Part shown: one piece after another, positions 3,380 through 39,666 of the stretch | Position numbering within the stretch: position 1 is the stretch's first letter | Layout of the letters: each line of letters opens with the position of its first letter | Source: a virus | Length of the DNA: 64,000 bases | IMG/VR virus record: IMGVR_UViG_3300032046_000014 | Coordinates: 20,304 to 84,303 of that record | Strand: one strand, 5' to 3' | Position numbers and translations under genes: made by a program | Notes under the pieces: model-generated | The model's database searches: none | The model's input: only the letters and a program-made list of their open reading frames with translations | What the model was told of the DNA's origin: nothing

Positions 3380-3390
3380 GAGAATGAGAA

Positions 3391-4391: not shown

Positions 4392-4441
4392 ACGTCCGCT
4401 AGACCATAACACTAAAAACACAAAACTTCTAAAACAGAACT

Positions 4442-4639
4442 ATGCCAATTCCACAGTTAACATGCCCAAAATGCGACAGCTCTCTCGAACAGGAAATCCG
4501 CGTTTCAAAAATGACCCATATCGTCAAAAATCCGAAGAGATCTACCAAAACCAAACGTGGTTACGTCTATCACTGTCTTCGCTGCAAGACATACTACAAA
4601 CCTGCCATGGCTCTAGTCGAGTGTGTCATAGTCGAATGA
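4442..4639 (+). CDS. Zinc-ribbon protein
   Basis: CPKC...CLRC. Confidence 0.6.
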   Translation: MPIPQLTCPKCDSSLEQEIRVSKMTHIVKNPKRSTKTKRGYVYHCLRCKTYYKPAMALVECVIVE

Positions 4640-5235: not shown

Positions 5236-5276
5236 AACCCCACAAATGTTATTTAGTCCCACAGAAGAAGAATAGT

Positions 5277-5675: not shown

Positions 5676-5719
5676 AGGTATAAACTCCATCGAACAAAAA
5701 AAGAAGGGAGTTACTGAGT

Positions 5720-6013
5720 TTACTCTTCTTCTATGTAGGCTTCGATTTTGGCGAGCAGTTTCAGTATGGATTTCGAGAGCATCATTAGTGTCCCGATGAT
5801 GAGGATGAACACTGTCAGGATGATCCAGTTCACCCATGTCATCATGGTAGCGGTTTCAGCTTGCAGTGCAGGCACTACGACGTATGCTCCGTAGAGAAAG
5901 TTAAGTGCCAAGCCGAAGATCGTCCAGAGCAGTAGAATCAGTGTTTTCAAGCCTTTAGGGATTCCTTTTCCATTTTCTGACAAAATGATCCCTGAAGAAC
6001 CATCGTGTAGCAT
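5720..6013 (-). CDS. Small two-TM membrane protein
   Basis: Two hydrophobic helices. Confidence 0.55.
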   Translation of the reverse strand: MLHDGSSGIILSENGKGIPKGLKTLILLLWTIFGLALNFLYGAYVVVPALQAETATMMTWVNWIILTVFILIIGTLMMLSKSILKLLAKIEAYIEEE

Positions 6014-6137
6014 CTATTTAACTTTTGTTGAGCAACCATAGGGTTTTGCGGGAAAACGAAAAGAGTCTATTATTCCGTTCACTGTTCTGAGAAACGCAAA
6101 ACTTATATCATGAATATACGTTTTATCATTTGGTGAA

Positions 6138-6407
6138 ATGATGCTGCTTAACACAGACCTTGTCCGAGAAGTAGTGAATGAACTTATTAAAGAGGATCGA
6201 GAGTTTCATTCAACCGAATTGGCTGAAGCATTGGGCAAAAGGATTGGTATGGTCATAAAAGTAGATACCGCCAGATACTGGGCGAACAAGTTCACTCTTG
6301 ATGGGTTGCTTGAGAGACGCCCGATCAATAAAAAACTTCGAGTCTACCGCAGAAGAAAAGGCATAGATCTTTCTTCATCATTGACAGTTCAGAAACCATC
6401 TAATTAA
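6138..6407 (+). CDS. Winged-helix DNA-binding protein
   Basis: FHSTELAEAL...TARYWANKFTLDGLLER. Confidence 0.6.
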   Translation: MMLLNTDLVREVVNELIKEDREFHSTELAEALGKRIGMVIKVDTARYWANKFTLDGLLERRPINKKLRVYRRRKGIDLSSSLTVQKPSN

Positions 6408-24943: not shown

Positions 24944-26158
24944 CTACTCCTTCAAGTCTCTTATTTTGCCTTGGACATTGAAACGAGTGCAGATTATGTC
25001 TCCCATGGTCCTGTACAGGCCCTTGTCTCCGATGAAGTTGATTGCGAATGGGTTGCCGGTGCTGATGCCTGCCTCGAAGTATTGTGTTGGTTTTGCGACT
25101 TTGAAGAGCAAGTAGTCTGTGTCTAGGAAGTAGAGTCTGCTGAGTCCAGCTGGCGTTGCGCTTGGTTGGTCTTGCAGGTTGTTCTTGGTCGGAAGTATGG
25201 GTACTCCGTTGTAGGTTGCAACGATGAATCCGGCTGCGATGCCTTCAATTCCTCTGACTCCGCCGTAGGTTGGGACAACAGTCTTGTATTCGACGAATCT
25301 CTGTTGCGCCTGGAGCAGTCTCTGGACTGCTTTGAGTGTGTCGTATCCGGTTTGGATTATCTTGGGGGTTCCGCCTGCCTTCCAGATCTGTCGGAATATA
25401 TCGTCCAAAAGGTCTAGTGTGAGGCTTCTCAGGCTGCCTTTGGTTGCGTGGTAGCTGATGATGGCGTCTGCCCAGCTGTAGTTTGTGGCGTCTGACCTGT
25501 CTATTGTGGTTCCGTTCACGTACACGTCGTTGCTGACTACGTCTGGTGTGGTGGAGCCATCGGCCATGAAGCAGGTTCCATCTGATTCAACTTTTGCTGA
25601 AACAAGTCTGTCAATTGTTTGGATGTCATTGCCTTCTTGGACTGCTGTAGAGGCAACTCCTTCAGCGTTGAGCATGATGTTGATGTGTTCTGCGTGGTGC
25701 AGGCCCATGTATTCTCTCATCTGGCGCATGACATCGCCGAGTGAGTCGTCGATTCCACCCAAGTATTGTATCATTTCAGCTACGTTGAACGTGTGGCCCA
25801 CGATTTTTGGTTTGCTGTAGAGCTGTTTCCATGTTGGCTTTGTCGTGTCTGGCAATGCAGATCCTTCAGCAAGCCCGCCTGGAGCTACTGTGTATGACCC
25901 AACGGGTGGCACTGGAGCTCTTGCGGTTAGGACACGGAAGCCACTGTGGTCCCATACTGCTTTGGGCAGAAAAGCAAAAGTGTTGGCTTCAAGGTTGAGT
26001 TGTGACCATACTTTAGCGCCGTAGATTGGATTATAGATTCCGCCTTGCGTGGTTAGGATTGGTGCGTCTGCCTTCATTACGTCGGCTACGCCGAGACCGT
26101 AGTAGTATCGTTCCATATCTTCGAGGGTTTTGATTTCAAATATGCTTCTTCCTGACAT
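24944..26158 (-). CDS. Major capsid protein (HK97 fold)
   Basis: YGAKVWSQLN, ATYNGVPI, YRTMGDIIC..FNVQGKIRDLK; follows protease/scaffold. Confidence 0.92.
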   Translation of the reverse strand: MSGRSIFEIKTLEDMERYYYGLGVADVMKADAPILTTQGGIYNPIYGAKVWSQLNLEANTFAFLPKAVWDHSGFRVLTARAPVPPVGSYTVAPGGLAEGSALPDTTKPTWKQLYSKPKIVGHTFNVAEMIQYLGGIDDSLGDVMRQMREYMGLHHAEHINIMLNAEGVASTAVQEGNDIQTIDRLVSAKVESDGTCFMADGSTTPDVVSNDVYVNGTTIDRSDATNYSWADAIISYHATKGSLRSLTLDLLDDIFRQIWKAGGTPKIIQTGYDTLKAVQRLLQAQQRFVEYKTVVPTYGGVRGIEGIAAGFIVATYNGVPILPTKNNLQDQPSATPAGLSRLYFLDTDYLLFKVAKPTQYFEAGISTGNPFAINFIGDKGLYRTMGDIICTRFNVQGKIRDLKE

Positions 26159-26160
26159 GC

Positions 26161-28167
26161 TTATGCACTCTCCCGTAAGCGCGCTGCGCGCTGTTGATCA
26201 CTCATGTCATGGACTTTAGTCCATGGCAGCTCATGCAATGTCTGCAAGGTCAATGGTTGGCCGGGTGCAGCTGCACCTGGAGTTCCGGGCGTTTCCGGTG
26301 CGTTGTCGCCTGTGAATGCAGACTTTCTAACTGTTGCGCTTTGGCTCTTCAGAATATCAGCGGTTTTCTTGGCGATGCCATCAACATCGACGGCAGTGGC
26401 GCTCTTCTGTAAGGTTGCTACTGCTTTCGTTAGTTCAGCAACGGCTTTTCCGATGTCTGCGATTCTTTGAGAATCGCTCTTTTTGCGATGTTCCTCAATG
26501 TATCGTTTCAAGCCTGGAGGCATTTTGCCTTTTGCTTCAAGTCCCTCGAGAGTGGAGATGACTTCTGGGTCGTTGAGCATTTTCTCGTCTTCAGGAGGAT
26601 ATGGTAATTTGGTTTTGTCCTTGCCAGCAGCATCCTTAGCATCCTCGTCTTCTTCGTCCTCTTCCTCTCCTGGTTTCGCAGCAGCCTTTGCGGCGCCTTC
26701 TTTCTCGCCTGGCGGTGGATATTTGCCTGCCTTACAGCCAGCATCTTTGACTGCACCTTCCTTCGCTGCACCCTCTTTCTCGGGTTTCTCTTCATCCTCT
26801 GGTTTTGCAGCTTCTTTCTCTGGCTTTTCCTCTTCACCTGGCTTTACTTCAGCTTTGACTGCTCCCTCTTTTCCTTCAGAGGGCAGCATTGCTTCGAGCT
26901 CCTTGATTTTGGAGCGCATGGTCGCTATGTTCGGTCCCGTTGCAGAAGTTCCTGTTACTCCGCCTGTGTTTGGTCCTGTTCCAGTTCCTACGATTCCTGG
27001 TGTTCCAATTGTTTTTTCTACTTTGTCGGACATTTTTGAGTCCTCAGTGGTTGATGTTCGACCTTCTATGTTTTTAAGTGTTATGTTTGACTGAGCGCTA
27101 GACGGTTCGCCTGACTGTGACGTTTCTGCCTTTATCATGTCAACCCTACCGAGACTATCGCAAGGCACGAGTGCAAGATCAAATAGGGGCCTATAAGCAT
27201 CATGAGGCCCTCCTTCGTCGCCGAAGATGAATTCAAGTTTGTCCCAGAGCTCATTAGGCAATGCTTTGAGGATTCGTGTCTCAATATGTCTCCGCATAGG
27301 ATTGTCAGTATCCATTTTTATGAGCAAGTCAAAGTCGTTGCCTTCTCCTTTCTCCACACTGCTTCCGACTTGGCACACGAATTCTTTGCGGATGATGAGG
27401 CTTTTGCCCATGAGGTTCGGCAGAAAAGACAGCTCCTTCACGAGTTTCTCGCTGTTCTTCAGTTCTGCGCTTTTCTGCAGGAACATTTCTTCCGTGATGA
27501 GCCCATGGTCCAAGTAACTTTTGAGAACCTGGAACCCGCTCTCCGTGTTCTTGCCACGCTTGCAAACCGTAATCTCGTAAAGTTCAAGATCATCAATCTT
27601 CCAGAACGCGCCCGAACGTGCCTGCGCTACAAGAGTTTTTCCGCCGAGAGCCCGTCCGCCAATGCTGAAAGCGTTAAGTTCGCCCTTGTTAGCCATTTCC
27701 CAGACTTTGTCAGCGATTTCTATATCATCGCGTAATTCAGCGACCACATAGAGGCCCTTATCGTCGACGTGGCTCCAGTATTTCTTGCCTTCTGAATCTT
27801 CAACGGTTTCTTTGAGAAGGATTTTGCCGATGGTAATGTTGCTGTGTTCCAGGTTGATGTTAGCGTATTTTTCGCCGGCTGCCTTCATTCTGTCCCATGC
27901 TTTCTGCAAGGCGGGGATGGTGACAAGTTCGTTTTGTTTGTCGATAACTTCGACACTGGCGTAACCGTGGATGATTCTGCGTTTGCCGTCTTTCAGAAGT
28001 AATCCTGCGGCTGGAATATCGAATCGTATGTAGGCGGGGACGGGGGAGTCAACAAGCTCTTTCAGCAGAAGTTCGGTGATGGGATGTTCAAGGACCTGGC
28101 GTGCCATTGGGTCTCCGGCTAATGCGCTTTTCTCAAGCTCAGCCAAAAGTGTTGCAGCATTTGGCAT
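26161..28167 (-). CDS. Prohead protease fused to a nucleotidyltransferase-like domain and a scaffold
   Basis: GYASVEVIDKQNE, H, FSIGG, EITVC; GSSVEKGEGNDFDLLI; E/K-rich C-terminus. Confidence 0.88.
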   Translation of the reverse strand: MPNAATLLAELEKSALAGDPMARQVLEHPITELLLKELVDSPVPAYIRFDIPAAGLLLKDGKRRIIHGYASVEVIDKQNELVTIPALQKAWDRMKAAGEKYANINLEHSNITIGKILLKETVEDSEGKKYWSHVDDKGLYVVAELRDDIEIADKVWEMANKGELNAFSIGGRALGGKTLVAQARSGAFWKIDDLELYEITVCKRGKNTESGFQVLKSYLDHGLITEEMFLQKSAELKNSEKLVKELSFLPNLMGKSLIIRKEFVCQVGSSVEKGEGNDFDLLIKMDTDNPMRRHIETRILKALPNELWDKLEFIFGDEGGPHDAYRPLFDLALVPCDSLGRVDMIKAETSQSGEPSSAQSNITLKNIEGRTSTTEDSKMSDKVEKTIGTPGIVGTGTGPNTGGVTGTSATGPNIATMRSKIKELEAMLPSEGKEGAVKAEVKPGEEEKPEKEAAKPEDEEKPEKEGAAKEGAVKDAGCKAGKYPPPGEKEGAAKAAAKPGEEEDEEDEDAKDAAGKDKTKLPYPPEDEKMLNDPEVISTLEGLEAKGKMPPGLKRYIEEHRKKSDSQRIADIGKAVAELTKAVATLQKSATAVDVDGIAKKTADILKSQSATVRKSAFTGDNAPETPGTPGAAAPGQPLTLQTLHELPWTKVHDMSDQQRAARLRESA

Positions 28168-28195
28168 AATACATACCTGTTCTAGCGTGCAGTTG

Positions 28196-28224
28196 ACTAT
28201 ATTTTTAACTGTTCTGTTGTAACG
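28196..28224 (-). promoter_or_regulatory. Late-promoter-like motif copy 2 (CGTTACAACAGAACAGTTAAAAATATAGT)
   Basis: 26/29 identical to 16597..16625; about 30 nt upstream of the protease ATG. Confidence 0.7.
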
Positions 28225-28267
28225 GCAACACTTTTTAGTCTCGCATTACCACTACAACAAGATAATC

Positions 28268-28678
28268 ATGAAAGATGTTATCGGCATATTAGTTTGCAAC
28301 AGCCAGAAAGTGCTTGACCATAAATTGAAGGATGGTAAAAAGAGCGAACATTGCTATTGTTTTTGGAACATGACTCGTTTTCCTCGACGAATTCTCCAGC
28401 GCGTATTTCCTGAATCTATAGGTGCAGTTTCTGAAGCAGCAAAAGCGCCTGGCTTCGGATGGTATGCTGAAGATGATATAGGGGTTCCAGAGGATTTTGA
28501 GGTTCACCTTTACTTCGCAGTGAAGGGGCAAGTGCTGGGCTATTTTGTTTGTAAGGCAATGGGAGAACGGCATAGAACGCAGGAATTAAGATTTCACAGT
28601 GAATCATGGACTCCGATAAAACCAGTAACTATCAAGCCGAGCCAGGGATTCCGATACTTCAAGCATGACTTAGACTAG
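28268..28678 (+). CDS. Hypothetical protein, possibly PUA/ASCH-like
   Basis: LYFAVKGQVLGYF...PSQGFRY. Confidence 0.5.
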   Translation: MKDVIGILVCNSQKVLDHKLKDGKKSEHCYCFWNMTRFPRRILQRVFPESIGAVSEAAKAPGFGWYAEDDIGVPEDFEVHLYFAVKGQVLGYFVCKAMGERHRTQELRFHSESWTPIKPVTIKPSQGFRYFKHDLD

Positions 28679-28707
28679 CGCGCATTTAATGGTTATAACA
28701 GCAAAGG

Positions 28708-29238
28708 GTGAAAAATACGGAACGTAAACTGAAATATCACTTGTTCCCTGAGCAAATCGTAAACTATGTTTGGCAAGGAAAGCAGTGTTCAGTACAAGGT
28801 ATTCATAAAGCCCTAGATATGGAATATGATAAAGAACACAAAACTTGGCTCAGATTTGAACAAAAACCTGACGACAGAGGATACTTCTGGTGGGAGGAAG
28901 CTGATCTTATTGCGATAGTTAAAGGGCAGAGATCATTCTCATGTGACATTTGCCGAAAAACATTTTCGCCAAAGAGAGTAGGCTTTCTTTCTTCCCAAAG
29001 GATAGTCGAACCTGCTTACTATGTTGGGTTACTCGATATGGAGGGTTGTACTCCTCCACCTTGGGGATACACTACTAAAATCTGCTTAGACTGCGCTTCG
29101 GAAATCTTCAAGGATGCCATAGTTTACAAGTGTGATCCAGATTCGGACTGGTGGTGCGGATGGCATTCAGAAGCACCGAAAATAGATAGACCAAAAATCA
29201 AGCTGATAGACGAATTATTCCCTTTTCTTTGCGGTTAA
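28708..29238 (+). CDS. Cys/Trp-rich hypothetical protein
   Basis: CDIC...CLDC. Confidence 0.55.
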   Translation: MKNTERKLKYHLFPEQIVNYVWQGKQCSVQGIHKALDMEYDKEHKTWLRFEQKPDDRGYFWWEEADLIAIVKGQRSFSCDICRKTFSPKRVGFLSSQRIVEPAYYVGLLDMEGCTPPPWGYTTKICLDCASEIFKDAIVYKCDPDSDWWCGWHSEAPKIDRPKIKLIDELFPFLCG

Positions 29239-29289
29239 CTTAGTTTGTGCGAAAAGGATGAAAAGAATAGCGCGCGTATGAGGTATATT

Positions 29290-29577
29290 TCAATTCCGCA
29301 GAGATAGGAGCTGCTGGCGCACCGCCTTATTCCATCTGAGCTGCATAACGGCTCTGATGCTGATTTTCTGCATCTTAGAATTGCCACAGATAGGACATTT
29401 GTTTCCCCGACCAGTTTTATGGAAAAGAAATGGTATGGCATGACCCTTTTTTGAACTGTCCTCACAAGTACAGCATTTATAGACTGACAGTTTGTCTTGC
29501 ATTCGCCGACCTAGAAACTCCGTGGTTTTCGGCGTTTCCCTCTCCATTCCTAAAAACTTCTTCAAACTCATCTTCAT
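29290..29577 (-). CDS. Zinc-ribbon protein
   Basis: CCTC...CPICG; coupled to the polyprotein stop. Confidence 0.55.
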   Translation of the reverse strand: MKMSLKKFLGMERETPKTTEFLGRRMQDKLSVYKCCTCEDSSKKGHAIPFLFHKTGRGNKCPICGNSKMQKISIRAVMQLRWNKAVRQQLLSLRN

Positions 29578-32500
29578 CCCTCTATCGGCTTCTTTTCTTC
29601 TCCTGGGCTTTGGACCGGGGCTTCAGTCTCTCCCGCAAGTCTATAGTGGCCATCATCTTCATGTTTAATTGGGTCCATGGGTTGCTGATCGGATGGTCGA
29701 AAGGCAAGCCATCTAGGGCTGCCAGACGCAAGCTTAAGGAGCCGGAAGATCCATCTGCCCCGGAGGAGTTTTCCATAGAAGAAGTATTCGTGGAGATTGT
29801 TTCTTTGGACCCCGTACTTGAACGTGCCTTCTTCCAAAATCTCATAGAAACCACACCTGTTTGTTTCAGCTGCAGATCCTTCTCCGCCGAGAAGCACTGG
29901 TTTACGTAGGCCCTGGACGTCTAGCCAGCCTCTAGGAAACTTTTTGCTGCTCTGTTTAGGAATGGCCGGTTTGGCCGTGGTCATGCCCTTAATGCTGCCG
30001 CTGAAGAATCTCTGAGTTTTCTCCCAAGGATATGTGAGGAAAGTCCAGCCGATCATGCTTTTCGCGTCGCCTGTGTCCTGGCGAGTTTCCCAATGTTCAC
30101 GAAAACCGCCCACGCCCTTCCTTATTTCTTCAGGTTCAGAGTCTCCGAATTCGATGTCTGGCTCTTCAGACTTTGCTAAGTCAGGTTTCAATTGTTCCCA
30201 GACGTAACGTTCAGCCGAGCTTGGGTCTCTTGGTGCAGAAATGGCGTCTCCGGGCGGATTGCCGCCTGCGCTGCTAGGCGGAGAACCTGTGATCTTGATA
30301 TCGCCGGCAGTGTCTGGTTCTATTCTTTTCTCCTTGTTGATCTTGGGTCCATATGGAAAATGATGATGGACGATGAATGTGAAAGCTTTTCCATGCAGCC
30401 ATTCGGCCCCCTTGTAAAACTGGGCGGGATATGGATTGCCTTCCTTGGTCTCGGGCAGCTGAGGTTCAGCAGCTTTTTTCAGTCCTCCAGGCAATACGAA
30501 ACCATCATGTGCAGCGAGCACTGGCTTGTCATATTCTGCTTCCAACGCAATCTTTGACAAAGCTTCCGGCATATCCTCTTGCTTCACGCCCAAGTGTCCA
30601 ACATGGGTAATTATCACTTGGGGCACACCGTTTTTCTTCGCCTGTTTCAGACTATTCAAGATGCTTTGATGCCCATAATCTTCACCATCTTGCTCTCGAA
30701 CGATGTCTCGAGTGAGGCTTGCGCCGTCTATGATCCAGGTTTCCACACCGCCAAGCCACTTGTCACTTATTTCTAGGCAGTCGGGACTATAGAGTACGAT
30801 GCCGTTGATGCGGATGGCGAACGTTTGAACCTTCAAGCTGTGTTTAACTGGGAGCCAGCGGACCTTCACGTTTCCGATTCTGATGGCGTTATAGCTGCTG
30901 TAGAAGTGAAGTTCTCGATGACTCAGTTTCTCAGCGTATTCAGGACGCTGCTCACGTATGTCACGCCATATAGAACGGTGCATGTATATGGGCACGTCTT
31001 CAGACAGAAATTCCAGGCCGTCTATATGGTCCGGATGTGCATGAGTGACGCAGACTGCATCAAGGCGTGTTTGAACCTTCTCCGCGAGCTCCTTGCTTCC
31101 GCAGTCAAGCAGAACGTTCGTACCGCTGTTTTCGAATATGGCGCTTGCATTCAACCTTTTATCGGTGCGACACTGCTCATCATCGCAGTCTTTGCGCGGA
31201 AAAGTTTTCTCTCCGCTTGTACCGAGGAACCGGAGATTCCAGGTTGCAAGCTCAACCGCGTCGGCTGCTGCTCCCCGGCTCGGAGTCCATGTTACAGGAC
31301 CTTGCCGAGTTGATTCTTCGGGCGGCATCTGTTTTTCCGTCGGGTTAACGGGCGGCTTTTCAGACGAAAGAGGCTTTCCCGTTTTCGGGTCTGCTCTATG
31401 GCCAGTCCACGGCGGCCATAACTGTTTCTGCAGAGTGTCTATGCGTTCTTTCAGTTTTTCAGGGTCAGTTGCTGAGGCTCTCACGGTGGCGACCCAACCG
31501 TCTGCTTCTTCATCGACAGAGATTTTGTAGTTGCTGATGCCGATGCTTTCAAACAGGTTTTCTACTTGAGCTTTCCATTGTTGGGCTTTCGCGTATCCTT
31601 CGGGCCCTTTGAAGAAAACATGAGATGTCAATGATGTCTCGTCAGCGCGCATATACTGTAACGGTGTGATTTCATGGAAAGTATTGTCTGCAGGGTCGGG
31701 AACTCTTTCGCCGCCGCCCATTCCAGGAACGCCTATGACCCCACCGGGAGCATAAGTAAATCCGCCATTTGCTTTCGTCAGCTCTTCCTTTTCTAATGGT
31801 GTGTTATGGTTCATTCCGCGTTTTTCAATTTCTCTGGCGATGGCATCGTGAAGAGCTTTGACCGTTGGCTTATCATGCACTAGAGGTTTGCCGCTTTGCA
31901 GTGTGCTCCACCAAGCATGTGTGATTCTGTGATCATCGAGAAGGACGCGGTCATCAATCTTGGCCGGATCATACGTGTCTACGTCCTTGATTTTTGTTAT
32001 GCCAGCTGAACCTTCTGGACCCGTAGAATCTGCGCTGGGCTCGGGCTTCGTTGTCGTAGTCATGATGCCCTGGTCAAGTCTGCCCGGTTCAAACTGCTGT
32101 GAACCGCTGTCAGGATCAGATGCAAACTGTTTCTGAACTTTCTCATCATGCTGTTGAGAATGTTCTTTCCAGTGGACAGGAACTTCACCATCTGTGACTT
32201 TGTAGACTTTGCAAATGTCCTTCTCATGCGTGTAAGCAGCATCGTATTCGGGATCTTCTTTTTCCCAGGGACCGCCGGGCTCTTGTTTCCATTCTTCGAA
32301 GTCTTTGTCGCAGAACCAAGCGCGGCCCATTCCTTCAGCATAGAGTACGTCGACTGTCGGAGGGTCTTCGCAGCGCATGCATTTTTGGCGATTAGCCCTT
32401 TTTTCTATGTAGTCAGAGGCTTTCTTGAACTGGGTGATTTCTTCAGGTGTAGGAAGCGATCGTCCTGGACTAATCGGCGCCAGCATATGCAGATATCCTG

Positions 32501-34643
32501 CTACGTCATCGGCTTTCTGAAGGGTTTGACTGGCCAATTCTTCAGCTGTATCCAAACCGTCTGGCACATTCTTTTCAGGCTGGTACATGGGAACAGCATT
32601 CTGGTATGTGTAGTCGTAACTGTTGTTTTTGACGATTTCCAAGCAGCGAACTCGGAGGATATCCCCCTCAGCTGCTTCTACGCCTGAGACGTGCGTGTGG
32701 CCCATGATAAGCCATTTCTTGCCTTTCATTTCTGCAATACGGTTTGCCGGCAGAGTCTTCGCCTGCGCGTCATTGATGGGGCCTATTGCGCCGAGATAGC
32801 GCCAGCCTTCCTGTTTGCGTTCTTTCTTGACGACGAGGACGTCGATTTCTTTCTGCTTCTTCCATTTTGCCCATCCGAAATTGATGATTCGCTTAGTATT
32901 CCATTGGCTTTGTGCGTCGAAGAGCATGGCGCCTTCGCTGCCCTTCAGGTTGCCCATGCGTTCAGCTGCTTCTGCGGTTTTACTTGGCGGTACAACGGTA
33001 AACTGTTCAGGTTTTATGATGGGCAGATGCACGGTTCCTTTGAATTCTTTTCTGAGCAGTTTCAGTCTGTCTATCATGGGCATGTCCGCGAGGCTTTTTC
33101 CGTCTAACTCGATGATGTCGAAGATCCATATTCGGAGGTTGCGGCCTTCCTCTACCGGGGCCTCCCCATTCAAGTATCCGATTGCTAATGTCCGGTGCAT
33201 CGGCTGACTGTCCGAATACATCATCGCTTGTCCATGGAGGATGAATGATTCGTGGGGCCAATTTTTCAACTCCTCAATAATATGGGGAACACGACTTGTC
33301 TTGTCAAGTCCCCTGCCACTCCAAACTTTTTCTTTGCTCAGCATCATGTCCATGCCGTCAAACTTCTGCTGAACAAGAACATTGGCAAACCTTCTGAGAA
33401 GGGATGGAAGCTTCTTGACGTCATAGTACCGGGTGGCAGGCTTGTTTGCTTTCGGCAATGATGCCTTCGCTATAAGCTGGCCGTCCTCGACAATGAGGTC
33501 GCTTTTGCCGATTTGCTCTGGAGAATGAACGGTTCTGACGGCTTCCTGGTAAGTGGTGGGGTGCATTTCGACTGCTGTTTCTCCGCCGGGCCCTGCAGAT
33601 TCGGGAGTTTGTTTTTCTTCGCTGAACATTTCAGCAGCAGCATGGGCTACTCCGACAACATCTCTCCAGTTGTCGCAGAAGTTCACTCCTAAATCGTCAA
33701 TGTACATGTCGGCAACGGGCTTGCCTAGTATGAGCTCATCATAAGAAATTCCGTTCTTGTCGAGCCATCCTGCAGTGAGCTCATAGTACCGGGGATCTCG
33801 AGCGGTGTAAATGACGATGTTTGCCAGGTCATTAAGGTCTTTCATGCTTTCCTGCGCGAGAGTTTTCGGTTTTGCTTGTGTATAGCATTCTGGAATCGGC
33901 AGGTTAGTGTCGGTGTCGGCTATTGTGCCATCCAGGTCGACGGCGATTGTGAGGTCTTGAGTGTCGCTTTTCCATTCAGGCGTCGGGAAAAAGACTTGTA
34001 CTCCTCGCTGGTACTTGTAGGATTGTGGAGTTTTGAAGCGGTTGAGAATCTTGAGAGTGTAGGCGTAGAGCATGTTGGCGTCGGGCCACCATCGGGTTCG
34101 CTCTTTGTCGCTGATCTTGTGCTGGGGCTGGAGCTTCTTGAACTGCTCGAGCGTAATGGGCTCGATGTCCGTGAATTTGAGAACTCCATAGACATATTCA
34201 TCGTCGGCCCAGTAGAGCGGTTTGTTGAGCATGCCGCTGTAATTGCGGCATTTTACAGTGAGACTTTTTTCGCCGTTCCAGATCATACGTGCATGGGGCG
34301 GGGCAAGATAAACGCTTTTGGCGTTTATTTGTGAAACTGTGCTCTTGAGACTTTGAACAGTGCTTTTGCCCACGGTCACGCCGTCTAGGTCATCGTAAGT
34401 TTTATGGATGAAACCGCGTCTGTCCATTTCTGCTTGGAGCAACCAGTGATAATCAACCAGATCCTCTATCGACCAGCCTGGCACCGCGTCTGGCACATCT
34501 TTTTTTCTGCACCAGAGCGCGTGACATAAGGCATGGTCAAACAGCAACTGTTGATCAACAAGTTCTCCAGGAACCGACATGGCAGTTAGGCTCTCCGGCT
34601 TAAATCCTCCTTGTTTACCCGCTGTTTCGTAGGGTCTACCCAT
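29574..34643 (-). CDS. Multidomain nucleic-acid repair polyprotein (ASCH; HAD phosphatase; ATP-dependent ligase; Zn finger; MBL hydrolase; LigD-like phosphoesterase)
   Basis: PHARMIWNGEK; IAVDLDGT/YTAR/KP.ADMYIDD; QKFDG/WIFDII/EGAM/WAKWK; THAHPDHIDG/GHQS/THVGH; FIVHHH..HWETR..EEGTF..FYGKLLRGRW. Confidence 0.85.
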   Translation of the reverse strand: MGRPYETAGKQGGFKPESLTAMSVPGELVDQQLLFDHALCHALWCRKKDVPDAVPGWSIEDLVDYHWLLQAEMDRRGFIHKTYDDLDGVTVGKSTVQSLKSTVSQINAKSVYLAPPHARMIWNGEKSLTVKCRNYSGMLNKPLYWADDEYVYGVLKFTDIEPITLEQFKKLQPQHKISDKERTRWWPDANMLYAYTLKILNRFKTPQSYKYQRGVQVFFPTPEWKSDTQDLTIAVDLDGTIADTDTNLPIPECYTQAKPKTLAQESMKDLNDLANIVIYTARDPRYYELTAGWLDKNGISYDELILGKPVADMYIDDLGVNFCDNWRDVVGVAHAAAEMFSEEKQTPESAGPGGETAVEMHPTTYQEAVRTVHSPEQIGKSDLIVEDGQLIAKASLPKANKPATRYYDVKKLPSLLRRFANVLVQQKFDGMDMMLSKEKVWSGRGLDKTSRVPHIIEELKNWPHESFILHGQAMMYSDSQPMHRTLAIGYLNGEAPVEEGRNLRIWIFDIIELDGKSLADMPMIDRLKLLRKEFKGTVHLPIIKPEQFTVVPPSKTAEAAERMGNLKGSEGAMLFDAQSQWNTKRIINFGWAKWKKQKEIDVLVVKKERKQEGWRYLGAIGPINDAQAKTLPANRIAEMKGKKWLIMGHTHVSGVEAAEGDILRVRCLEIVKNNSYDYTYQNAVPMYQPEKNVPDGLDTAEELASQTLQKADDVAGYLHMLAPISPGRSLPTPEEITQFKKASDYIEKRANRQKCMRCEDPPTVDVLYAEGMGRAWFCDKDFEEWKQEPGGPWEKEDPEYDAAYTHEKDICKVYKVTDGEVPVHWKEHSQQHDEKVQKQFASDPDSGSQQFEPGRLDQGIMTTTTKPEPSADSTGPEGSAGITKIKDVDTYDPAKIDDRVLLDDHRITHAWWSTLQSGKPLVHDKPTVKALHDAIAREIEKRGMNHNTPLEKEELTKANGGFTYAPGGVIGVPGMGGGERVPDPADNTFHEITPLQYMRADETSLTSHVFFKGPEGYAKAQQWKAQVENLFESIGISNYKISVDEEADGWVATVRASATDPEKLKERIDTLQKQLWPPWTGHRADPKTGKPLSSEKPPVNPTEKQMPPEESTRQGPVTWTPSRGAAADAVELATWNLRFLGTSGEKTFPRKDCDDEQCRTDKRLNASAIFENSGTNVLLDCGSKELAEKVQTRLDAVCVTHAHPDHIDGLEFLSEDVPIYMHRSIWRDIREQRPEYAEKLSHRELHFYSSYNAIRIGNVKVRWLPVKHSLKVQTFAIRINGIVLYSPDCLEISDKWLGGVETWIIDGASLTRDIVREQDGEDYGHQSILNSLKQAKKNGVPQVIITHVGHLGVKQEDMPEALSKIALEAEYDKPVLAAHDGFVLPGGLKKAAEPQLPETKEGNPYPAQFYKGAEWLHGKAFTFIVHHHFPYGPKINKEKRIEPDTAGDIKITGSPPSSAGGNPPGDAISAPRDPSSAERYVWEQLKPDLAKSEEPDIEFGDSEPEEIRKGVGGFREHWETRQDTGDAKSMIGWTFLTYPWEKTQRFFSGSIKGMTTAKPAIPKQSSKKFPRGWLDVQGLRKPVLLGGEGSAAETNRCGFYEILEEGTFKYGVQRNNLHEYFFYGKLLRGRWIFRLLKLASGSPRWLAFRPSDQQPMDPIKHEDDGHYRLAGETEAPVQSPGEEKKPIEG

Positions 34644-36568
34644 CTTTTCTTCTTCGGGATTGAAGCGGTCGGGTTCAGGATGCCCGGTGTTGCAGTGGTG
34701 ACGGGAGAGTCTTCTTTAGCAAGGATCGGTTCCGTTGTTGTTTCTTGCAGTTTTGGGTTAACGAAGCTTGTTTTCTGGGGGCCATGATACCATTGTTCTT
34801 TATCTTTCCAGAAGGCGCCGCAGAAATCTTCAGGGTCTTTCACCCAGCCTTTAACCCGGACCTTGCAGGCTTCCATGAAAGGATCTATAGAGGAACTTGA
34901 CTTCGAAAGCAATATTAGATCATCTATCATGGATTTGTTGTAGTTTTCAGCTTGTTGCCCCGCAGGTTTCGGCGCGAAGCGTCCGGTTCTTTCTCGAATT
35001 TCGCCGGTGGCTTCAGATTCGATGCCAATTTTCTCGGGCGGTGATGGCGTACTCTTTTTACCTTGTTCTGTAAGTTCTCCTTCTCCAGAAACTTCCAGTT
35101 CCCCTCTTTCGTTGAGGCGAACATCAAAACCTGCTTTCAGCCAAGTGAAGGCAGTGTTTGCTTTGATTTGGCCAATCTCGGTGAGCCGCAGTTCATCTCG
35201 AAGTTCCAGCGTGTTAAACCTGAATTTCCAGTCTGTAATGTTGAAGGCTGGAAACACACGGTTGTTCATTATGTCCTCGCGGTTCTTGTGATGCTCGCGT
35301 ATGGCACGGTCTTGGACTGTGACCTGCATCATAGGTGTGGTGCCTGCTTTGCCTGATTCTATGTCGCCTGTGAAGACTGGCTGGGCCGAGTACACGGCGC
35401 CGCAGGCTGCTCTCCAGAACTTGTAGAATTCGATGCTTTGCATGCGTTTGAAGTCTTCCATGACTCGAGTGACTTTGATGGGGTCTTTGCTAGCTATCAT
35501 CATAGTGCGGACTTTCTTGCTTGTCCGGAATCTGCGGAGCACGGGGTCGTAGACTCGTTTGCGCAAGGCTTCCTGCTCAAACTGATCCATGATCTCGTTG
35601 ACTTCTTCCTGTTCGTGGCCTGGAAAATTGACGATGCTGCCCAGTTTTCCTTCAGTATAGAGTTCTATGTTGAAGTCATCCATTGCCTGTATGCTGAGCA
35701 GGATTTTCCAGAGGCAGATGATTCTGCTTTCACCATACAAATTCGGTACCCAGCGGTCACTGCTGCCGTGGATAACTTCGTCTTTGGTGAATCTTGCTTT
35801 GACAGCTCCGCCCACACGCTGCACGTATGCTGTTTTCTGCAATGGTTTGCCGCAGACTAGACAGGTAACTGTTGGAGGCGCATAGACAAAATCTGGTTTC
35901 CAGCATTCTGGACAGAAAAGCTGGTTAGGATCTCCGATGTGGCCTTTATCATCGGCAACAACACGGAAGTATCGCGGGTCTTCCACGTTAAGTTCAGCCG
36001 GGATCTTGAGTAGTTCACTGGCTTTCTCGGGTTCGGGGTTGATCACATACTTGTAGCTGATAGTCATGAAATAGTTGTCCAAGCTCAGGTCATACATCAG
36101 CGTGCTCTTCAAGAGTTCATAGAAGGTGTTTTCCTCATTTGGTTTCGTCAGCAGTTCCAGGGCTCTTTGCTCCTGTTCCGTGTCAGGAGGCACGAGTGAT
36201 TCTTTGTCCTTTGGACATTTGTTGTCAGGCGGCGGATCCTTGAATTCCTTCTTGCATTTTGGACATTTGCCGATGAAAGCAGGTTCTAAACGCCAGCCGG
36301 GACTCATGGTTTCACGGATGATTGTGCCGAAAACATTCTTCAAAACCCAGTGAGTGCGCGCGATCAGCATGAGCTCTTCGAAGTTGTAGATAGGCTCACG
36401 TATCTTGTAGCTAGGTTCCCATATGTATTCCGGAATTACTGTACGGTCAGCTTTGCGGATTTCCTTTTCAAACTCGGTCAACGGCGCAGTTGCCTTGACC
36501 ATTACTTCGGCTTTTTCAACAATGTTTTCCCATGGCATTATTTTTTGCTCCTTTTGATGTTGCTGCAT
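34586..36568 (-). CDS. Portal protein with zinc-binding insertions
   Basis: Position after terminase; KPNEENTFYELL, DEVIH, YGESRI; CPKC/CPKD and CPEC/CLVC insertions. Confidence 0.85.
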   Translation of the reverse strand: MQQHQKEQKIMPWENIVEKAEVMVKATAPLTEFEKEIRKADRTVIPEYIWEPSYKIREPIYNFEELMLIARTHWVLKNVFGTIIRETMSPGWRLEPAFIGKCPKCKKEFKDPPPDNKCPKDKESLVPPDTEQEQRALELLTKPNEENTFYELLKSTLMYDLSLDNYFMTISYKYVINPEPEKASELLKIPAELNVEDPRYFRVVADDKGHIGDPNQLFCPECWKPDFVYAPPTVTCLVCGKPLQKTAYVQRVGGAVKARFTKDEVIHGSSDRWVPNLYGESRIICLWKILLSIQAMDDFNIELYTEGKLGSIVNFPGHEQEEVNEIMDQFEQEALRKRVYDPVLRRFRTSKKVRTMMIASKDPIKVTRVMEDFKRMQSIEFYKFWRAACGAVYSAQPVFTGDIESGKAGTTPMMQVTVQDRAIREHHKNREDIMNNRVFPAFNITDWKFRFNTLELRDELRLTEIGQIKANTAFTWLKAGFDVRLNERGELEVSGEGELTEQGKKSTPSPPEKIGIESEATGEIRERTGRFAPKPAGQQAENYNKSMIDDLILLSKSSSSIDPFMEACKVRVKGWVKDPEDFCGAFWKDKEQWYHGPQKTSFVNPKLQETTTEPILAKEDSPVTTATPGILNPTASIPKKKRWVDPTKQRVNKEDLSRRA

Positions 36569-36635
36569 GTAACGCAGCCTAACCCGTATTCACTGCATTT
36601 TCTGCAGAGGTCACGGTTAATCACCTGGCGTTTCA

Positions 36636-36824
36636 TCATGGTTCCTTCTTTTCCCTTACTATGCGAACTTCCTGAAGCTTGATTGTCTTGGTAATATCGA
36701 CGCCGTTGACAAGTATGTGAAGTTCCTTTATGTTGCAGTCTAAAGTCATGCCGAGCGCTTTCACTTCACTGTCATTGGCGCCGGGAACGCTTGGAGCTTT
36801 AGCTTTGAAAAGTTCTTCTTCCAA
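36636..36824 (-). CDS. Small hypothetical protein
   Basis: RBS AGGTGA upstream; in the packaging operon. Confidence 0.5.
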   Translation of the reverse strand: MEEELFKAKAPSVPGANDSEVKALGMTLDCNIKELHILVNGVDITKTIKLQEVRIVREKKEP

Positions 36825-36835
36825 TCGTCATCACC

Positions 36836-37174
36836 TCATGTTTTGAATGCTTCCTGGATGGCCAGCATCATCCGCTCGTTCGCTGCTTGCTGGCGAGAAT
36901 CCAGCCCTGTTGGTTTCCTGTTGACGACATGGACCGTTCCGCAGGCTGGACATTTTTTTTCCCATTCACCACCGATGTCTTTAACGGCGACCTTAAGCAG
37001 ACAACCGCAGCTTCCGCAACGGAATCGGACAGTTCTACCTTGTTGGACGAATGGGTTCAAACCTCTTGTAGGCTCTACAGCCTTACGGTATCGAAGGTCT
37101 TTTCCTGCTGGTTTTCGGTCAAAACTCATGCTTTCGTCTCCAAAGCTTTTTTGAGGCCAAATGGCGTGAGCCAA
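36836..37174 (-). CDS. Zinc-ribbon protein
   Basis: CGSCG...CPACG. Confidence 0.6.
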   Translation of the reverse strand: MAHAIWPQKSFGDESMSFDRKPAGKDLRYRKAVEPTRGLNPFVQQGRTVRFRCGSCGCLLKVAVKDIGGEWEKKCPACGTVHVVNRKPTGLDSRQQAANERMMLAIQEAFKT

Positions 37175-37338
37175 ATTACTTTACGGCCGAACTCATCGAC
37201 GCCTGTTTTGCAATAGCCATTCGCTTCCAAGCTTGTTAGAACTTTGGCAGAGCCTGGATCTCGAAGATTCTGCAGCCAGTTTTGCAGTTTATCCTTTCGG
37301 GTTTGTTTCAGTCCACTACTCATACTCTCAATCTCCAT
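37126..37338 (-). CDS. Small winged-helix-like protein
   Basis: LTSLEANGYC...WLTPFG. Confidence 0.45.
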   Translation of the reverse strand: MEIESMSSGLKQTRKDKLQNWLQNLRDPGSAKVLTSLEANGYCKTGVDEFGRKVIWLTPFGLKKALETKA

Positions 37339-37973
37339 GTACAGAACCAGGCAAGGTTGCTGTTGTCAGCAGTAACGCCGTCGAAAGAATCTATCAATAT
37401 GTAGTTACTGTTGAGGAGCTGGCGAAATTCTTTCCGACCCATCGTTAAAACGTGACTTGCAGTCCAGCCCTTCCAATCTTGCCCTTCTTCATTAATTGGG
37501 ATTTGGAAGGCTAGGTACTTCACTCTGGCTTCTGCCACATAATTCATGAGGTACATCACTTCCTCATCGTTGAAGTGTTCCAGCGTTTCTGAAGCTATGA
37601 GTAGGTCGTACTTTTGCAGGGGAACTCGTTCCACCCATAGGGGCAGGGTTAAAACGTGTTCTCTGTAGGTCTGGGGCAAGCCCTGCATTGGATTGTGCTG
37701 GATAATTTCAATGTTAAGCCACGACTTGCATCCTACGCTGCAGCTTACGGCTTGGGCAAGTTCGCCTTGGTAGCCGCCGATTTCCACGATGTCCAGCAGA
37801 GGCTTCTTCAATTCTTCACTGGCGGTTCGAACAGCGTTGCAGAAGAATTCCTGTCTGAAATGCAGTTGTTCAGGAAATATGTGGTACCAAGTCAGGTTCA
37901 GCATTTTCAAATCGTTGAAGCTGAGGCTACTGTATTGCTGACGGTACTCTTCGAAGTTTCGAGGCAACGTCAT
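37320..37973 (-). CDS. Class I SAM-dependent methyltransferase
   Basis: IVEIGGYQGELA, YDLLIASETLEH. Confidence 0.8.
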   Translation of the reverse strand: MTLPRNFEEYRQQYSSLSFNDLKMLNLTWYHIFPEQLHFRQEFFCNAVRTASEELKKPLLDIVEIGGYQGELAQAVSCSVGCKSWLNIEIIQHNPMQGLPQTYREHVLTLPLWVERVPLQKYDLLIASETLEHFNDEEVMYLMNYVAEARVKYLAFQIPINEEGQDWKGWTASHVLTMGRKEFRQLLNSNYILIDSFDGVTADNSNLAWFCTWRLRV

Positions 37974-38239
37974 CGTTCCAGACTCCTGACAGCCAATTTC
38001 ACAGACAGCCTGTTTTTGTCAAACATGATTTTATATATGATTCCGTTGCTCGAATTCCAGTTTGCGTCAATAATCTTGCCTATTTTCAGGCCCGCATCAT
38101 CAAGAATGGGCTTTCCAGTCATGGACAAGGCGAATTCTTCAAGTTCTTTCTGCATCATCTTATGCGCAATCAAAAGTCTACACTCCTGATAGCCAATTTC
38201 ACAGGCGGCTTCAATATGCTTCGCAGCATGAGCCCACAA
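37970..38239 (-). CDS. Small hypothetical protein, possibly PRC-barrel-like (true start probably near 38160)
   Basis: MTGKPILDDAGLKIGKI. Confidence 0.4.
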   Translation of the reverse strand: MWAHAAKHIEAACEIGYQECRLLIAHKMMQKELEEFALSMTGKPILDDAGLKIGKIIDANWNSSNGIIYKIMFDKNRLSVKLAVRSLER

Positions 38240-39666
38240 CTCTTGGGATAGTCATCATGCTTATCGTAGCCTTCCGGCGCGGCCAAATGCAGCATGTTGC
38301 CCTTCCAGAGCATGTTCAGGTCTAGGAATTCTCTGATAAACCTGTCTCGTTGGCGACGCTGGCGTCTGGCAATTGCTTCATTGATACTGGGAAAATCTAT
38401 GAGTTTCTTTCTGAAGCAGTTAAGCATGAGTTTGCTTGTGATGTCTTCTTCGCGTATCTCGTTTGTTCGGATGCCCTGGATGTCCAGGCGAGCTCCGCCG
38501 CCGGGCAGATTACGCCATTCTTTGCGGAAGTAATCCAGCACAGGATCTCCGACGCCGGCACTGTCTATGCAGATCTGCCGCGCGCCCAGTTCCAGGCATC
38601 GTTGAGCTACATGCTGGCTTTGCACTGGATAGTCTGTGCCTTCAAACTCCATCCATTCCAGAATATGGGCCATGTCACCTTCACCATAGCCGAAGGTGAT
38701 GACGCTGCGGTCGCTTTGTTTTGCCACATCCCAGCCAGCATAAATGTTGAACACTGGCTTTCCATCAACCATCGGTACTACGAGAGGCTGTTTCCTGCTC
38801 ATGTCCTGCAACGTTTCCAGTGTGGTGAATTTGTCAATGCCTAAAGCCCATTGCAGCTCGTACTGAGTTCGGAACCCGATGCTTTCCGGACCCAGTCTTT
38901 CACGTTCATTCTCCACGAATAGAGCGTATCGTTTGTTCCATCGGCTTGCTTCGTGGCAGTCGACACGTGTAATATTGCTGCGGTCTTCCCGTTTGGTACA
39001 GGCATCATAGAAGTAGCTGTTGATAACCACGTTTTTCGGTGTGCCATCCAAGATGCGCGCTCCACCTACAGCAGCGCTCATGGGGAATACTTCCTGCGTC
39101 ATCTTCAACGGGTCCACATCTTCGCTTTGTTCGATGACAATGAGGTTCAATGTTTCGCTGGTTACATTGCTTTTTTCTCCTATGCTTAGGCAGCGGATGC
39201 GGGCATCAACGTTTTCAGCAATGTTCCGTATAACGAAAAGTTCGCTATATACTGAATCTCCGGTTATTAGTCTAAGGCCAAGCATATCGAGTAACAGTTT
39301 GATCCGCATATATCTGCGTCTGAGACGTTCCTTTACAACCAGGATTGACTGGCTTGCAGCAGGAGCGAACACGCCAATGCGCACGTGCTGCTTCAAAATT
39401 TTCGTGAAGAAGATGCTGAGCGTGAGGAAGCTTATGCATACCGCCTCTGTTTTGCCACTTTGCCGGCACTGCAGTATGAAGAGTTCTTCTCCTTTCGCGT
39501 TCAAAGTCACACGCATGATGTCATCGCTAACCCTCGTCTCATAAGGGTAAAGTCCTTCTGGCAAGTCTTCTTTGAGAGCGGCGACGATGATCTTTCGTAA
39601 TGCACGACAAATATCCAAGGAACTATGACCGTTATTACTGGTTAGAAGTTCCTGGAGTTGATTCAT
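38170..39666 (-). CDS. terL: Terminase large subunit
   Basis: CRQSGKT Walker A, GWDVAKQSD, IDSAGVG, HDD. Confidence 0.93.
   Translation of the reverse strand: MNQLQELLTSNNGHSSLDICRALRKIIVAALKEDLPEGLYPYETRVSDDIMRVTLNAKGEELFILQCRQSGKTEAVCISFLTLSIFFTKILKQHVRIGVFAPAASQSILVVKERLRRRYMRIKLLLDMLGLRLITGDSVYSELFVIRNIAENVDARIRCLSIGEKSNVTSETLNLIVIEQSEDVDPLKMTQEVFPMSAAVGGARILDGTPKNVVINSYFYDACTKREDRSNITRVDCHEASRWNKRYALFVENERERLGPESIGFRTQYELQWALGIDKFTTLETLQDMSRKQPLVVPMVDGKPVFNIYAGWDVAKQSDRSVITFGYGEGDMAHILEWMEFEGTDYPVQSQHVAQRCLELGARQICIDSAGVGDPVLDYFRKEWRNLPGGGARLDIQGIRTNEIREEDITSKLMLNCFRKKLIDFPSINEAIARRQRRQRDRFIREFLDLNMLWKGNMLHLAAPEGYDKHDDYPKSCGLMLRSILKPPVKLAIRSVDF

Follow-up and report, generated by a model that had tools for sequence, protein, structure and literature searches.

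The head proteins encoded on the minus strand of the window, the 64,000-nucleotide stretch analysed here, share a recurrent motif, [VLIMFYW]-x-K-[SA] (hydrophobic residue at P3, Lys at P1, Ser or Ala at P1'), which is likely the cut site of the virus's own S78 prohead protease in these proteins, including the linkers of a 1689-aa putative cargo protein. The virus is uncultured and known from an IMG/VR record alone; it is a marine virus whose host is probably archaeal. Its major capsid protein (MCP) shows 30.8% identity to those of the haloarchaeal siphoviruses HVTV-1 and HCTV-1, the former being the nearest cultured virus, and about 50% identity to those of many marine IMG/VR contigs; no bacterial phage was among the matches of the MCP search. 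Two ligases are encoded in the window, one in the structural module (29574-34643) and one at 60731-61702, and the additional ligase in the structural module, together with an MCP, portal and protease homologous to those of haloarchaeal siphoviruses, places the virus with the marine archaeal tailed viruses related to magroviruses/Druskaviridae. Among cultured phages, almost no matches to the protease or the giant protein were obtained, and PDB sequence searches gave no close solved structure for the capsid protein or the protease. The order on the minus strand is TerL, portal, 1689-aa ORF, protease-scaffold and MCP, with the protease located between portal and MCP. The four large head genes are:

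24944..26158, minus strand: MCP, 404 aa, HK97 fold family (phrog_24667, SU10_MCP)
26161..28167, minus strand: prohead protease fused to a scaffold-like region, 668 aa
29574..34643, minus strand: multi-enzyme protein, 1689 aa, between portal and protease
34586..36568, minus strand: portal protein, 660 aa

The recurrence of the motif in head proteins, noted in the initial annotation, is real. The six head ORFs together contain 34 copies where 11.3 are expected (Poisson P = 3.9e-8), compared to 41 copies versus 32.7 expected in the non-head ORFs of the rest of the window, corresponding to a 3.0-fold and a 1.25-fold excess, respectively. Expectations per protein were obtained from composition-preserving residue shuffles (3000 for the protease-scaffold), and analytic expectations were used in addition. 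According to the shuffles, the protease-scaffold carries 12 copies (2.85 expected; 0 of 3000 shuffles reached 12), the portal 7 (1.9 expected, P = 0.002) and the MCP 3 (0.93 expected), while the excess in the 1689-aa protein is modest (10 versus 4.87, P = 0.02). The small ORFs orf95 and orf112 harbor one copy each, which equals the chance level, so the proposal that the motif predicts which ORFs are cargo fails for them. The tetrapeptides originally quoted as examples were all found in the minus-strand ORFs, although one of them, EWKS (residues 223-226 of the 1689-aa protein), has Glu at P3. In an unbiased scan of the head proteins of the window, KA ranked first and KS second among 222 testable hydrophobic-x-a-b patterns. 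The motif was picked post hoc, a bias that is lessened by the unbiased scans and by the relatives, yet the latter are phylogenetically linked.

These relatives comprise about 80 marine, magrovirus-like viruses from IMG/VR contigs (approximately 50% MCP identity). Their head genes carry the same motif bias, while their tail genes are at expectation. Nine to 12 copies were counted in their protease-scaffold proteins (about 1.8 expected) and two to four in the small ORFs adjoining the portal (0.3-0.6 expected). In the non-redundant relative sets, KA (47 versus 13.4, rank 1) and KS (38 versus 11.1, rank 2) were enriched after hydrophobic-x, and RS, RA, ES and EA were not. A position-specific profile revealed the hydrophobic preference as one sharp peak at P3 (2.1-2.3-fold) with no i-4 or i-7 periodicity around K[SA]; no such peak was seen at R[SA], E[SA], K[DE] or K[LIV], nor in tail proteins. 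Helix periodicity was rejected as an explanation because of this single P3 peak and its absence for R, E and other P1' residues. A coiled-coil or heptad origin, suggested by three scaffold sites located seven residues apart, was likewise rejected in view of the profile.

Judged from its sequence, the protease is an HK97-type prohead serine protease (MEROPS S78). Its S78 domain (protease residues about 60-216, with His108 and Ser168) matches PF04586 (Peptidase_S78) with 29.3 bits against a cut-off of 21 (E = 1.1e-6) and PHROG head maturation protease families; the match to TIGR01543 (proheadase_HK97) reached 32 bits, which is under the cut-off of 59. In BLASTP, the protease is 27% identical to HK97 gp4 over 162 aa (E = 1e-5), and Ser168 (FSIGG) is aligned with HK97 Ser114. 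His108 (LEHS) is kept in all homologues and was paired with HK97 His65 by inspection, not by the BLAST alignment; His65 and Ser114 are what we take to be the catalytic residues of HK97 gp4. The following candidate sites were assigned in the protease-scaffold (here and below, a slash marks the bond that is or would be cut):

28126..28137, minus strand: LEK/S, protease residues 11-14, upstream of the catalytic domain; the same in L005
27517..27528, minus strand: VLK/S, protease residues 214-217, at the exact end of the S78 domain
27127..27480, minus strand: four sites of the middle region, LQK/S 232, MGK/S 255, ILK/A 301 and MIK/A 346
26320..26454, minus strand: cluster of five sites, IGK/A 574, LTK/A 581, LQK/S 588, ILK/S 607 and VRK/S 615

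The VLK/S site (K216) is aligned with AMK/S of HK97 gp4. The cluster of five is located directly upstream of the conserved C-terminal tail of the protease-scaffold, and two of its members, IGK/A 574 and VRK/S 615, are conserved in magrovirus-like homologues.

In the capsid protein, an N-terminal candidate site was assigned:

26069..26080, minus strand: VMK/A, MCP residues 27-30, with a predicted loss of a 29-aa N-terminal propeptide

This site is invariant in 53 close marine homologues (hydrophobic-x-K-A-D-x-P) despite indels in the preceding segment. The HVTV-1 capsid protein has MSK/A aligned with it and four further copies, of which three fall in the longer extension at its N-terminus. In the portal, candidate sites are found at the N-terminus (K19, K25 and K39) and in the C-terminal extension (K545 and K556), while K154 and K478 are within the conserved core. 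The placement of the motif "at domain boundaries", as initially described, applies to a part of the copies: nine out of ten lie outside recognised folds in the 1689-aa protein, but protease K89, portal K154 and K478, MCP K66 and K260, and K1019 of the 1689-aa protein are located in conserved or folded regions, and several of the tetrapeptides quoted at first are in folded cores. Since protease K89 and portal K478 are conserved even though they lie in folded regions, conservation alone is no proof of cutting.

The true start of the 1689-aa ORF is probably Met22 (nt 34580). The following domains were assigned to the protein:

Residues 22-86: endoV-like domain
Residues about 226-345: HAD phosphatase
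Residues about 399-700: ATP-dependent ligase
Residues about 895-950: second endoV-like copy
Residues 1001-1073: small alpha/beta domain
Residues 1136-1389: MBL hydrolase, followed by a LigD-phosphoesterase-like C-terminus

Candidate sites between and behind these domains are:

34362..34373, minus strand: VGK/S (K93), directly behind endoV-like domain 1; kept in P0003 and P0004
33447..33512, minus strand: IGK/S (K380), IAK/A (K393) and LPK/A (K398), phosphatase-ligase linker
32511..32522, minus strand: LQK/A (K710), past the ligase OB region; all homologues keep K with S or A after it
31770..31781, minus strand: LTK/A (K957), after the second endoV-like copy and before a Gly-rich stretch
30471..30482, minus strand: LKK/A (K1390), directly after the MBL domain
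30168..30179, minus strand: LAK/S (K1491), C-terminal region, in an acidic stretch of low conservation

Both endoV-like repeats terminate in a motif site. The sites at 93, 393, 710, 957, 1390 and 1491 recur in homologues with 49-65% identity; K393 is kept in five out of five homologues, and the K957 site is kept in P0004 downstream of an extra module of about 300 aa. Recognised folds, which were defined by homology and leave about half of the chain without an assigned fold, cover 49% of the residues and 47% of the lysines of the 1689-aa protein, but only one of the ten motifs and three of the 19 K[SA] (P about 0.005). Moreover, the flanks of its motif sites are less conserved than those of its other lysines (0.42 versus 0.57, P = 0.002). 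AlphaFold2 models of the two halves of the protein, based on 5-sequence alignments, had mean pLDDT values of 39 and 42 and were confident only for the MBL and the 1001-1073 domains, too poor to place most sites in loops. A general rule confining motif sites to variable linkers failed when tested on the giant proteins of magroviruses, where the conserved sites are near both ends and in conserved sequence. In a distant homologue, P0006, one chain unites a ligase, a UDG and a capsid-protease-like domain of the XkdF type (Peptidase_S78_2).

The cut in HK97 gp5, which we take to be at K103/S104, reads F-N-K/S and thus has a hydrophobic P3, Lys at P1 and Ser at P1', with three further copies of the motif in the degraded delta domain. 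The HK97 gp4/gp5 system also resembles that of the window in the protease family (by profile), in the order of portal, protease and capsid protein and in the K/S aligned at the catalytic-domain end of both proteases. It differs in that the capsid protein supplies the scaffold through its delta domain and no large cargo protein is known from it; in the window, the protease itself carries a scaffold-like region, the MCP propeptide would be only 29 aa long and a motif-bearing 1689-aa protein is present. In phage T5, pb8 presumably has a 159-aa delta domain and is cut at K159/A160. This bond is of the K/A type, all five motif copies of pb8 are in the removed delta domain, and the T5 protease, pb11, has copies near its own C-terminus. 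The mapped T5 site has His at P3, so the hydrophobic P3 rule is not absolute; the host of T5 is a bacterium, and no enzyme cargo polyprotein is known from it. Literature searches on pb11/pb8 cleavage found nothing. In phage phi12, either K or R is found at P1 (PMC8569155). The proteases gp21 of T4, gp175 of phiKZ and gp245 of SPN3US process internal or ejection proteins at a consensus motif, with one short motif reused in the capsid protein, the self-cutting protease and many head-packaged proteins, and with extra propeptide sites that aid clearance (PMC5694885). These enzymes differ from the protease of the window in belonging to the T4-type family and in cutting after Glu (L/I-x-E, A/S-x-E). 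Each of their substrates is a protein of its own with an N-terminal propeptide, in contrast to a single multi-enzyme chain. Magroviruses encode two ATP-dependent ligases, one of them inside the structural module (Philosof et al. 2017; PMC5434244). Like HVTV-1, they have giant ORFs between portal and protease and the same motif bias, but the protein of the window is related to the magrovirus giants in its ligase region only and has another domain set. No publication was found that ties the giant genes of magroviruses or HVTV-1 to protease processing or packaging.

If the motif is a cut site, the protease in the assembled procapsid would cut accessible copies: it would take the 29-residue propeptide off the capsid protein, free itself from its scaffold-like C-terminal half, sever the scaffold from the capsid-binding tail and trim the ends of the portal. 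The 1689-aa protein would be cut at its inter-domain linkers, giving endoV-like, phosphatase, ligase, MBL and phosphoesterase-like pieces, while no cutting is expected at copies buried in folded cores. The enrichment of the motif, its specificity, its conservation and its position are observations, from which cleavage and the packaging of the 1689-aa protein are inferred. The initial reading of the motif as a maturation site is supported in part: it agrees with the HK97-type protease, the match to the HK97 cut site, the specificity for head proteins and residues, the conservation and the inter-fold placement in the 1689-aa protein; it does not account for the copies in folded cores or for the magrovirus giants, whose conserved sites are not between enzyme domains.

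Chance or composition is a very improbable source of the motif. Head proteins do have a higher Lys and Ala content than the other proteins of the window, and the single copies in orf95 and orf112 are no more than chance would give, but the 3-fold excess (P about 4e-8) was obtained over composition-preserving shuffles and analytic expectations, it is replicated in the relatives and absent in tail genes, and for the large proteins this explanation is refuted. A function without cleavage, as a docking or capsid-interior binding motif or as a helix-end motif of scaffold-like proteins, appears quite unlikely. Many copies are indeed in helical, coiled-coil-like scaffold regions, three of those in the scaffold tail are spaced by exactly seven residues, and some conserved copies lie in folded cores. 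These points are opposed by the lack of helical periodicity, the strict specificity for K (not R) and S/A, the identity of the motif to experimentally known cut sites of the HK97 family and the position of the capsid-protein site in an N-arm that is not scaffold.

The protease code might also be real for capsid protein, scaffold and portal, with the 1689-aa protein being a cytoplasmic repair or replication enzyme that is neither packaged nor cut, which we consider unlikely, albeit with some evidence in its favor. The enrichment in this protein itself is weak (10 versus 4.9), no capsid-targeting signal was identified in it, and the ligase in the magrovirus structural module was called merely unexpected by its authors, without virion evidence (PMC5434244). 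On the other hand, nine of its ten motifs, and K[SA] overall, avoid recognised folds, six sites are kept in diverged linkers, and a site ends each endoV-like repeat. Furthermore, its gene is located between those of portal and protease and co-oriented with them, an arrangement shared by the large genes of HVTV-1, and the fusion of ligase, UDG and Peptidase_S78_2 domain in the distant homologue argues against a purely cytoplasmic role. Cleavage by the S78 protease, extending to the linkers of the 1689-aa protein, is the reading we prefer.

Processing by an S78 prohead protease is a known kind of system, of which a multi-enzyme cargo polyprotein is probably a new variant. Tentatively, the probably archaeal virus may package a single 1689-aa chain of repair enzymes, which would be cut at K/S and K/A linkers in the head and would enter the cell with the DNA. 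Its predicted content (two endoV-like modules, a 3'-phosphatase, an ATP-dependent ligase, an MBL hydrolase and a LigD-type phosphoesterase-like domain) would then amount to a delivered end-healing and sealing kit, e.g. for repairing an incoming genome harmed by UV or nucleases. A tailed virus would in this case apply to its cargo the kind of polyprotein processing known from RNA viruses of eukaryotes. Should the motif be the protease code, it would allow mature capsid proteins, the points of scaffold release and capsid cargo to be predicted from sequence only in uncultured marine viruses that form a large and abundant group, and delivery with the genome would be a possible reason for the "unexpected" ligase in the magrovirus structural module. 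Ordinary trypsin-based virion proteomics would be blind to these sites because the predicted cut is after Lys. To our knowledge, most head-internal proteins described so far are anti-restriction factors or RNA polymerases; repair enzymes packaged together and set free by the capsid protease would add a new use. In phage P1, DarA is cut by the protease Pro, and DarB of about 2000 aa is packaged (PMC12810830). The Dar system is similar in that large enzymes are packaged as head cargo and that the prohead protease trims a protein inside the head; it differs in showing no sequence relation, in consisting of separate gene products and in its anti-restriction role.

The window comprises the final 64 kb of an IMG/VR virus record of 84.3 kb. 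Its head module is encoded on the minus strand (24944-39666), with the genes in this order:

38170-39666, minus strand, large terminase
34586-36568, minus strand, portal
29574-34643, minus strand, multi-enzyme ORF (1689 aa)
26161-28167, minus strand, protease-scaffold, a prohead protease fused to a scaffold-like region (668 aa)
24944-26158, minus strand, major capsid protein (404 aa)

Among cultured viruses, the capsid protein matches only the haloarchaeal siphoviruses HVTV-1, HCTV-1 and HCTV-5 (30.8% identity) and one methanogen-associated virus; the virus is probably archaeal. Capsid proteins of approximately 50% identity are found in about 240 marine IMG/VR contigs, and a single locus (L005) reaches 75%. 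In the marine relatives, a giant ORF (approximately 1950 aa) with a ligase-like region is located between portal and protease. Two plus-strand ORFs without any family match (28268-28678, 136 aa, and 28708-29238, 176 aa) break the head operon of the window between giant ORF and protease. An HNH endonuclease is encoded at the equivalent place in HVTV-1, and a homing endonuclease has been reported there for magroviruses.

The initial annotation had interpreted the recurrent motif [VLIMFYW]-x-K-[SA] (hydrophobic at P3, cut after Lys at P1) as the maturation site of an HK97-type prohead protease. All tetrapeptides quoted there were found in the window; EWKS is among them, but its P3 residue is not hydrophobic.

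Motif counts, observed versus expected from residue shuffles
Capsid protein: 3 versus 0.93 (P = 0.06)
Protease-scaffold: 12 versus 2.85 (P < 3e-4)
1689-aa protein: 10 versus 4.87 (P = 0.02)
Portal: 7 versus 1.9 (P = 0.002)
Small head ORFs orf95 and orf112: 1 each (chance level)
Head ORFs pooled: 34 versus 11.3 (P = 3.9e-8)
Other window ORFs of at least 100 aa: 41 versus 32.7

As a guard against post hoc choice of the motif, all hydrophobic-x-a-b patterns were scanned. Of the 222 patterns that could be tested in the head proteins, KA ranked highest and KS next; in the non-head proteins they ranked 13th and 204th. Contrary to what the initial annotation had proposed, the motif by itself does not predict cargo, since single matches in small ORFs are at chance level and carry no information.

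Loci with approximately 50% capsid protein identity served as replication set. Their protease-scaffold proteins contain 9-12 motifs (about 1.8 expected), three small ORFs adjoining the portal 2-4 (0.3-0.6 expected) and the giant ORFs 6-10 (about 4.5 expected), while counts in tail and other downstream genes equal expectation. After redundancy had been reduced to 60% identity, KA (47 versus 13.4) and KS (38 versus 11.1) again led all 400 patterns in the set of protease and small-ORF proteins, where KG was likewise raised and RS, RA, ES and EA were not; the downstream genes showed no excess (KS 26 versus 27.8, KA 32 versus 32.7).

Because the exact seven-residue spacing of three scaffold-tail sites suggested a coiled-coil periodicity, hydrophobic residues were profiled around every K[SA]. 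The excess forms one sharp peak at P3 (2.1-2.3-fold); P4 is slightly depleted, and an i-4 or i-7 periodicity is not seen. The peak does not occur around R[SA], E[SA], K[DE] or K[LIV], nor in tail proteins. Helix bias does not explain this profile, which fits a recognition motif rather than amphipathic helices.

Residues 60-216 of the protease-scaffold match Peptidase_S78 above the Pfam cut-off and TIGR01543 (HK97 family prohead protease) below cut-off, and align with HK97 gp4 at 27% identity. Ser168 is aligned to the catalytic Ser of HK97, and His108 is kept in all homologues. HK97 gp5, whose known cut separates Lys103 from Ser104, reads F-N-K/S at this position (/, known or putative cut) and has three further motif copies in the removed delta domain. 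T5 pb8, which loses a delta domain of 159 residues, has K/A at residues 159/160, and its five hydrophobic-x-K-[SAG] copies (L087, the T5 locus, 26609-28635) are confined to residues 1-146 of the delta domain. Two such copies are located near the C-terminus of the T5 protease pb11. For phage phi12, P1 is reported to be K or R (PMC8569155). The HK97 premise of the initial annotation was right, as the motif agrees with all three of these known S78 substrates.

The 53 close marine homologues aligned all retain the capsid site VMK/A (residues 27-30), in the form hydrophobic-x-K-A-D-x-P, despite length variation in the segment directly before it. SKQD stands at this position in L001 and L002, two loci that are more distant. 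In the HVTV-1 capsid protein, MSK/A aligns with the site, and the motif occurs four further times, three of these within the N-terminal extension, which is longer in HVTV-1 (five in total, 0.77 expected). In the protease-scaffold, one site lies upstream of the catalytic domain and K216/S, aligned with AMK/S of HK97 gp4, lies in the final residues of the protease domain; IGK/A (574) and VRK/S (615), upstream of the conserved C-terminal tail, are retained in magrovirus-like homologues. A conserved, folded-looking segment (residues ~250-340; 27150-27420, minus strand) separates the protease domain from the scaffold region, which is acidic or Pro-rich. The segment is flanked by MGK/S (255) and MIK/A (346), and is common to L005 but not to magrovirus-like homologues. 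Candidate portal sites are K19, K25 and K39 before the conserved core and K545 and K556 in the C-terminal extension; K154 and K478 are within the core.

Domains of the 1689-aa protein were assigned by profile, PDB-sequence and language-model searches; the AlphaFold models were poor (pLDDT 39 and 42), and half of the protein is without assigned fold:

Residues 22-86, endoV-like (weak Pyr_excise match)
Residues ~226-345, HAD phosphatase (profile and PDB-sequence matches)
Residues ~399-700, ATP-dependent ligase (profile and PDB-sequence matches)
Residues ~895-950, second endoV-like copy (pairwise E = 3e-5 versus the first)
Residues 1001-1073, small alpha/beta domain (one of two confident AlphaFold islands)
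Residues 1136-1389, MBL hydrolase (profile and PDB-sequence matches, AlphaFold island)
Residues 1391-1689, LigD 3'-phosphoesterase-like (Atlas score 0.92, lead only)

Translation probably begins at Met22 (nt 34580) rather than at the longest-ORF start, the interval concerned being 34580-34643 on the minus strand. Two homologues (P0003 and P0004) begin at a Met aligned with Met22. With this start, the ORF no longer overlaps the portal gene by 58 nt, and the His of LLFDH is 16 residues from the start, as in T4 endonuclease V. In the two homologous, putatively endoV-like modules of ~65 aa (34365-34580 and 31773-31976, minus strand), the Glu that is catalytic in the T4 enzyme appears to be replaced (H-A-x-W motif); a K/S or K/A site follows each copy after 14-17 residues. 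A Pfam search with the C-terminal 300 aa (29577-30473, minus strand) gave no match, and this LigD-like domain appears to be split by a ~85-aa insertion containing the K1491 site. The homologue P0002 (93% identical to 29574-34643) is interrupted by two intein-like insertions: the first follows NFGW in the ligase, and the second splits LLDDHRI/THAWW, a conserved motif in the second endoV-like module. The window allele is without intein. These insertion points likely mark catalytic sites.

The recognised folds hold 49% of the residues and 47% of the lysines of the 1689-aa protein but only one of its ten motifs (K1019, not conserved) and 3 of 19 K[SA] dipeptides (P about 0.005), whereas K[DE] and E[SA] are spread evenly. 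Flank conservation is 0.42 at motif sites versus 0.57 at other lysines (P = 0.002). Sites 93, 393, 710, 957, 1390 and 1491 recur amid diverged linkers in the alignment with four homologues (49-93% identity), and in P0004 an extra MBL module of ~300 aa is inserted directly upstream of a retained LQK/A site. As motifs are enriched and mostly outside recognised folds, the protein shows neither of the two outcomes, background frequency or placement in folded cores, that would have spoken against the initial annotation.

Five conserved hydrophobic-x-K-[SAG] sites are common to the giant proteins (approximately 1800-2000 aa) of the magrovirus-like loci L039, L060 and 14 others (ORF ~2600-8500). One lies near residue 18; the remaining four follow the ligase-like region and fall in the C-terminal ~220 residues. 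Unlike those of the 1689-aa protein, all five sit in conserved sequence, which suggests that these giants may undergo end-trimming rather than domain release. In the distant homologue P0006, a single chain of 1252 aa, an ATP-dependent ligase is joined to a uracil-DNA glycosylase and to a capsid protease domain of XkdF type (Peptidase_S78_2).

In T4, phiKZ and SPN3US, one short motif, cut after Glu by the prohead protease, is shared by the capsid protein, the protease itself and the packaged proteins (PMC5694885), whereas the motif of the window has Lys. In P1, large Dar proteins are packaged and DarA is trimmed (PMC12810830). Judged by sequence, the motif is rather likely to be the cut site of the window's own protease; that the 1689-aa protein serves as a repair kit which is packaged and processed is a more tentative reading, somewhat short of an even chance. 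Reuse of one motif by prohead proteases (T4, phiKZ, SPN3US) is already known, as is the Lys preference of S78 proteases at single sites. New with respect to the literature searched are the motif-level signature throughout a clade of archaeal-type marine viruses and the placement of the motif between enzyme domains of a single long head-module chain. The non-structural part of the window encodes, on the plus strand, a second, stand-alone ATP-dependent DNA ligase (60731-61702, 323 aa) and an AAA ATPase (51008-52675, 555 aa).
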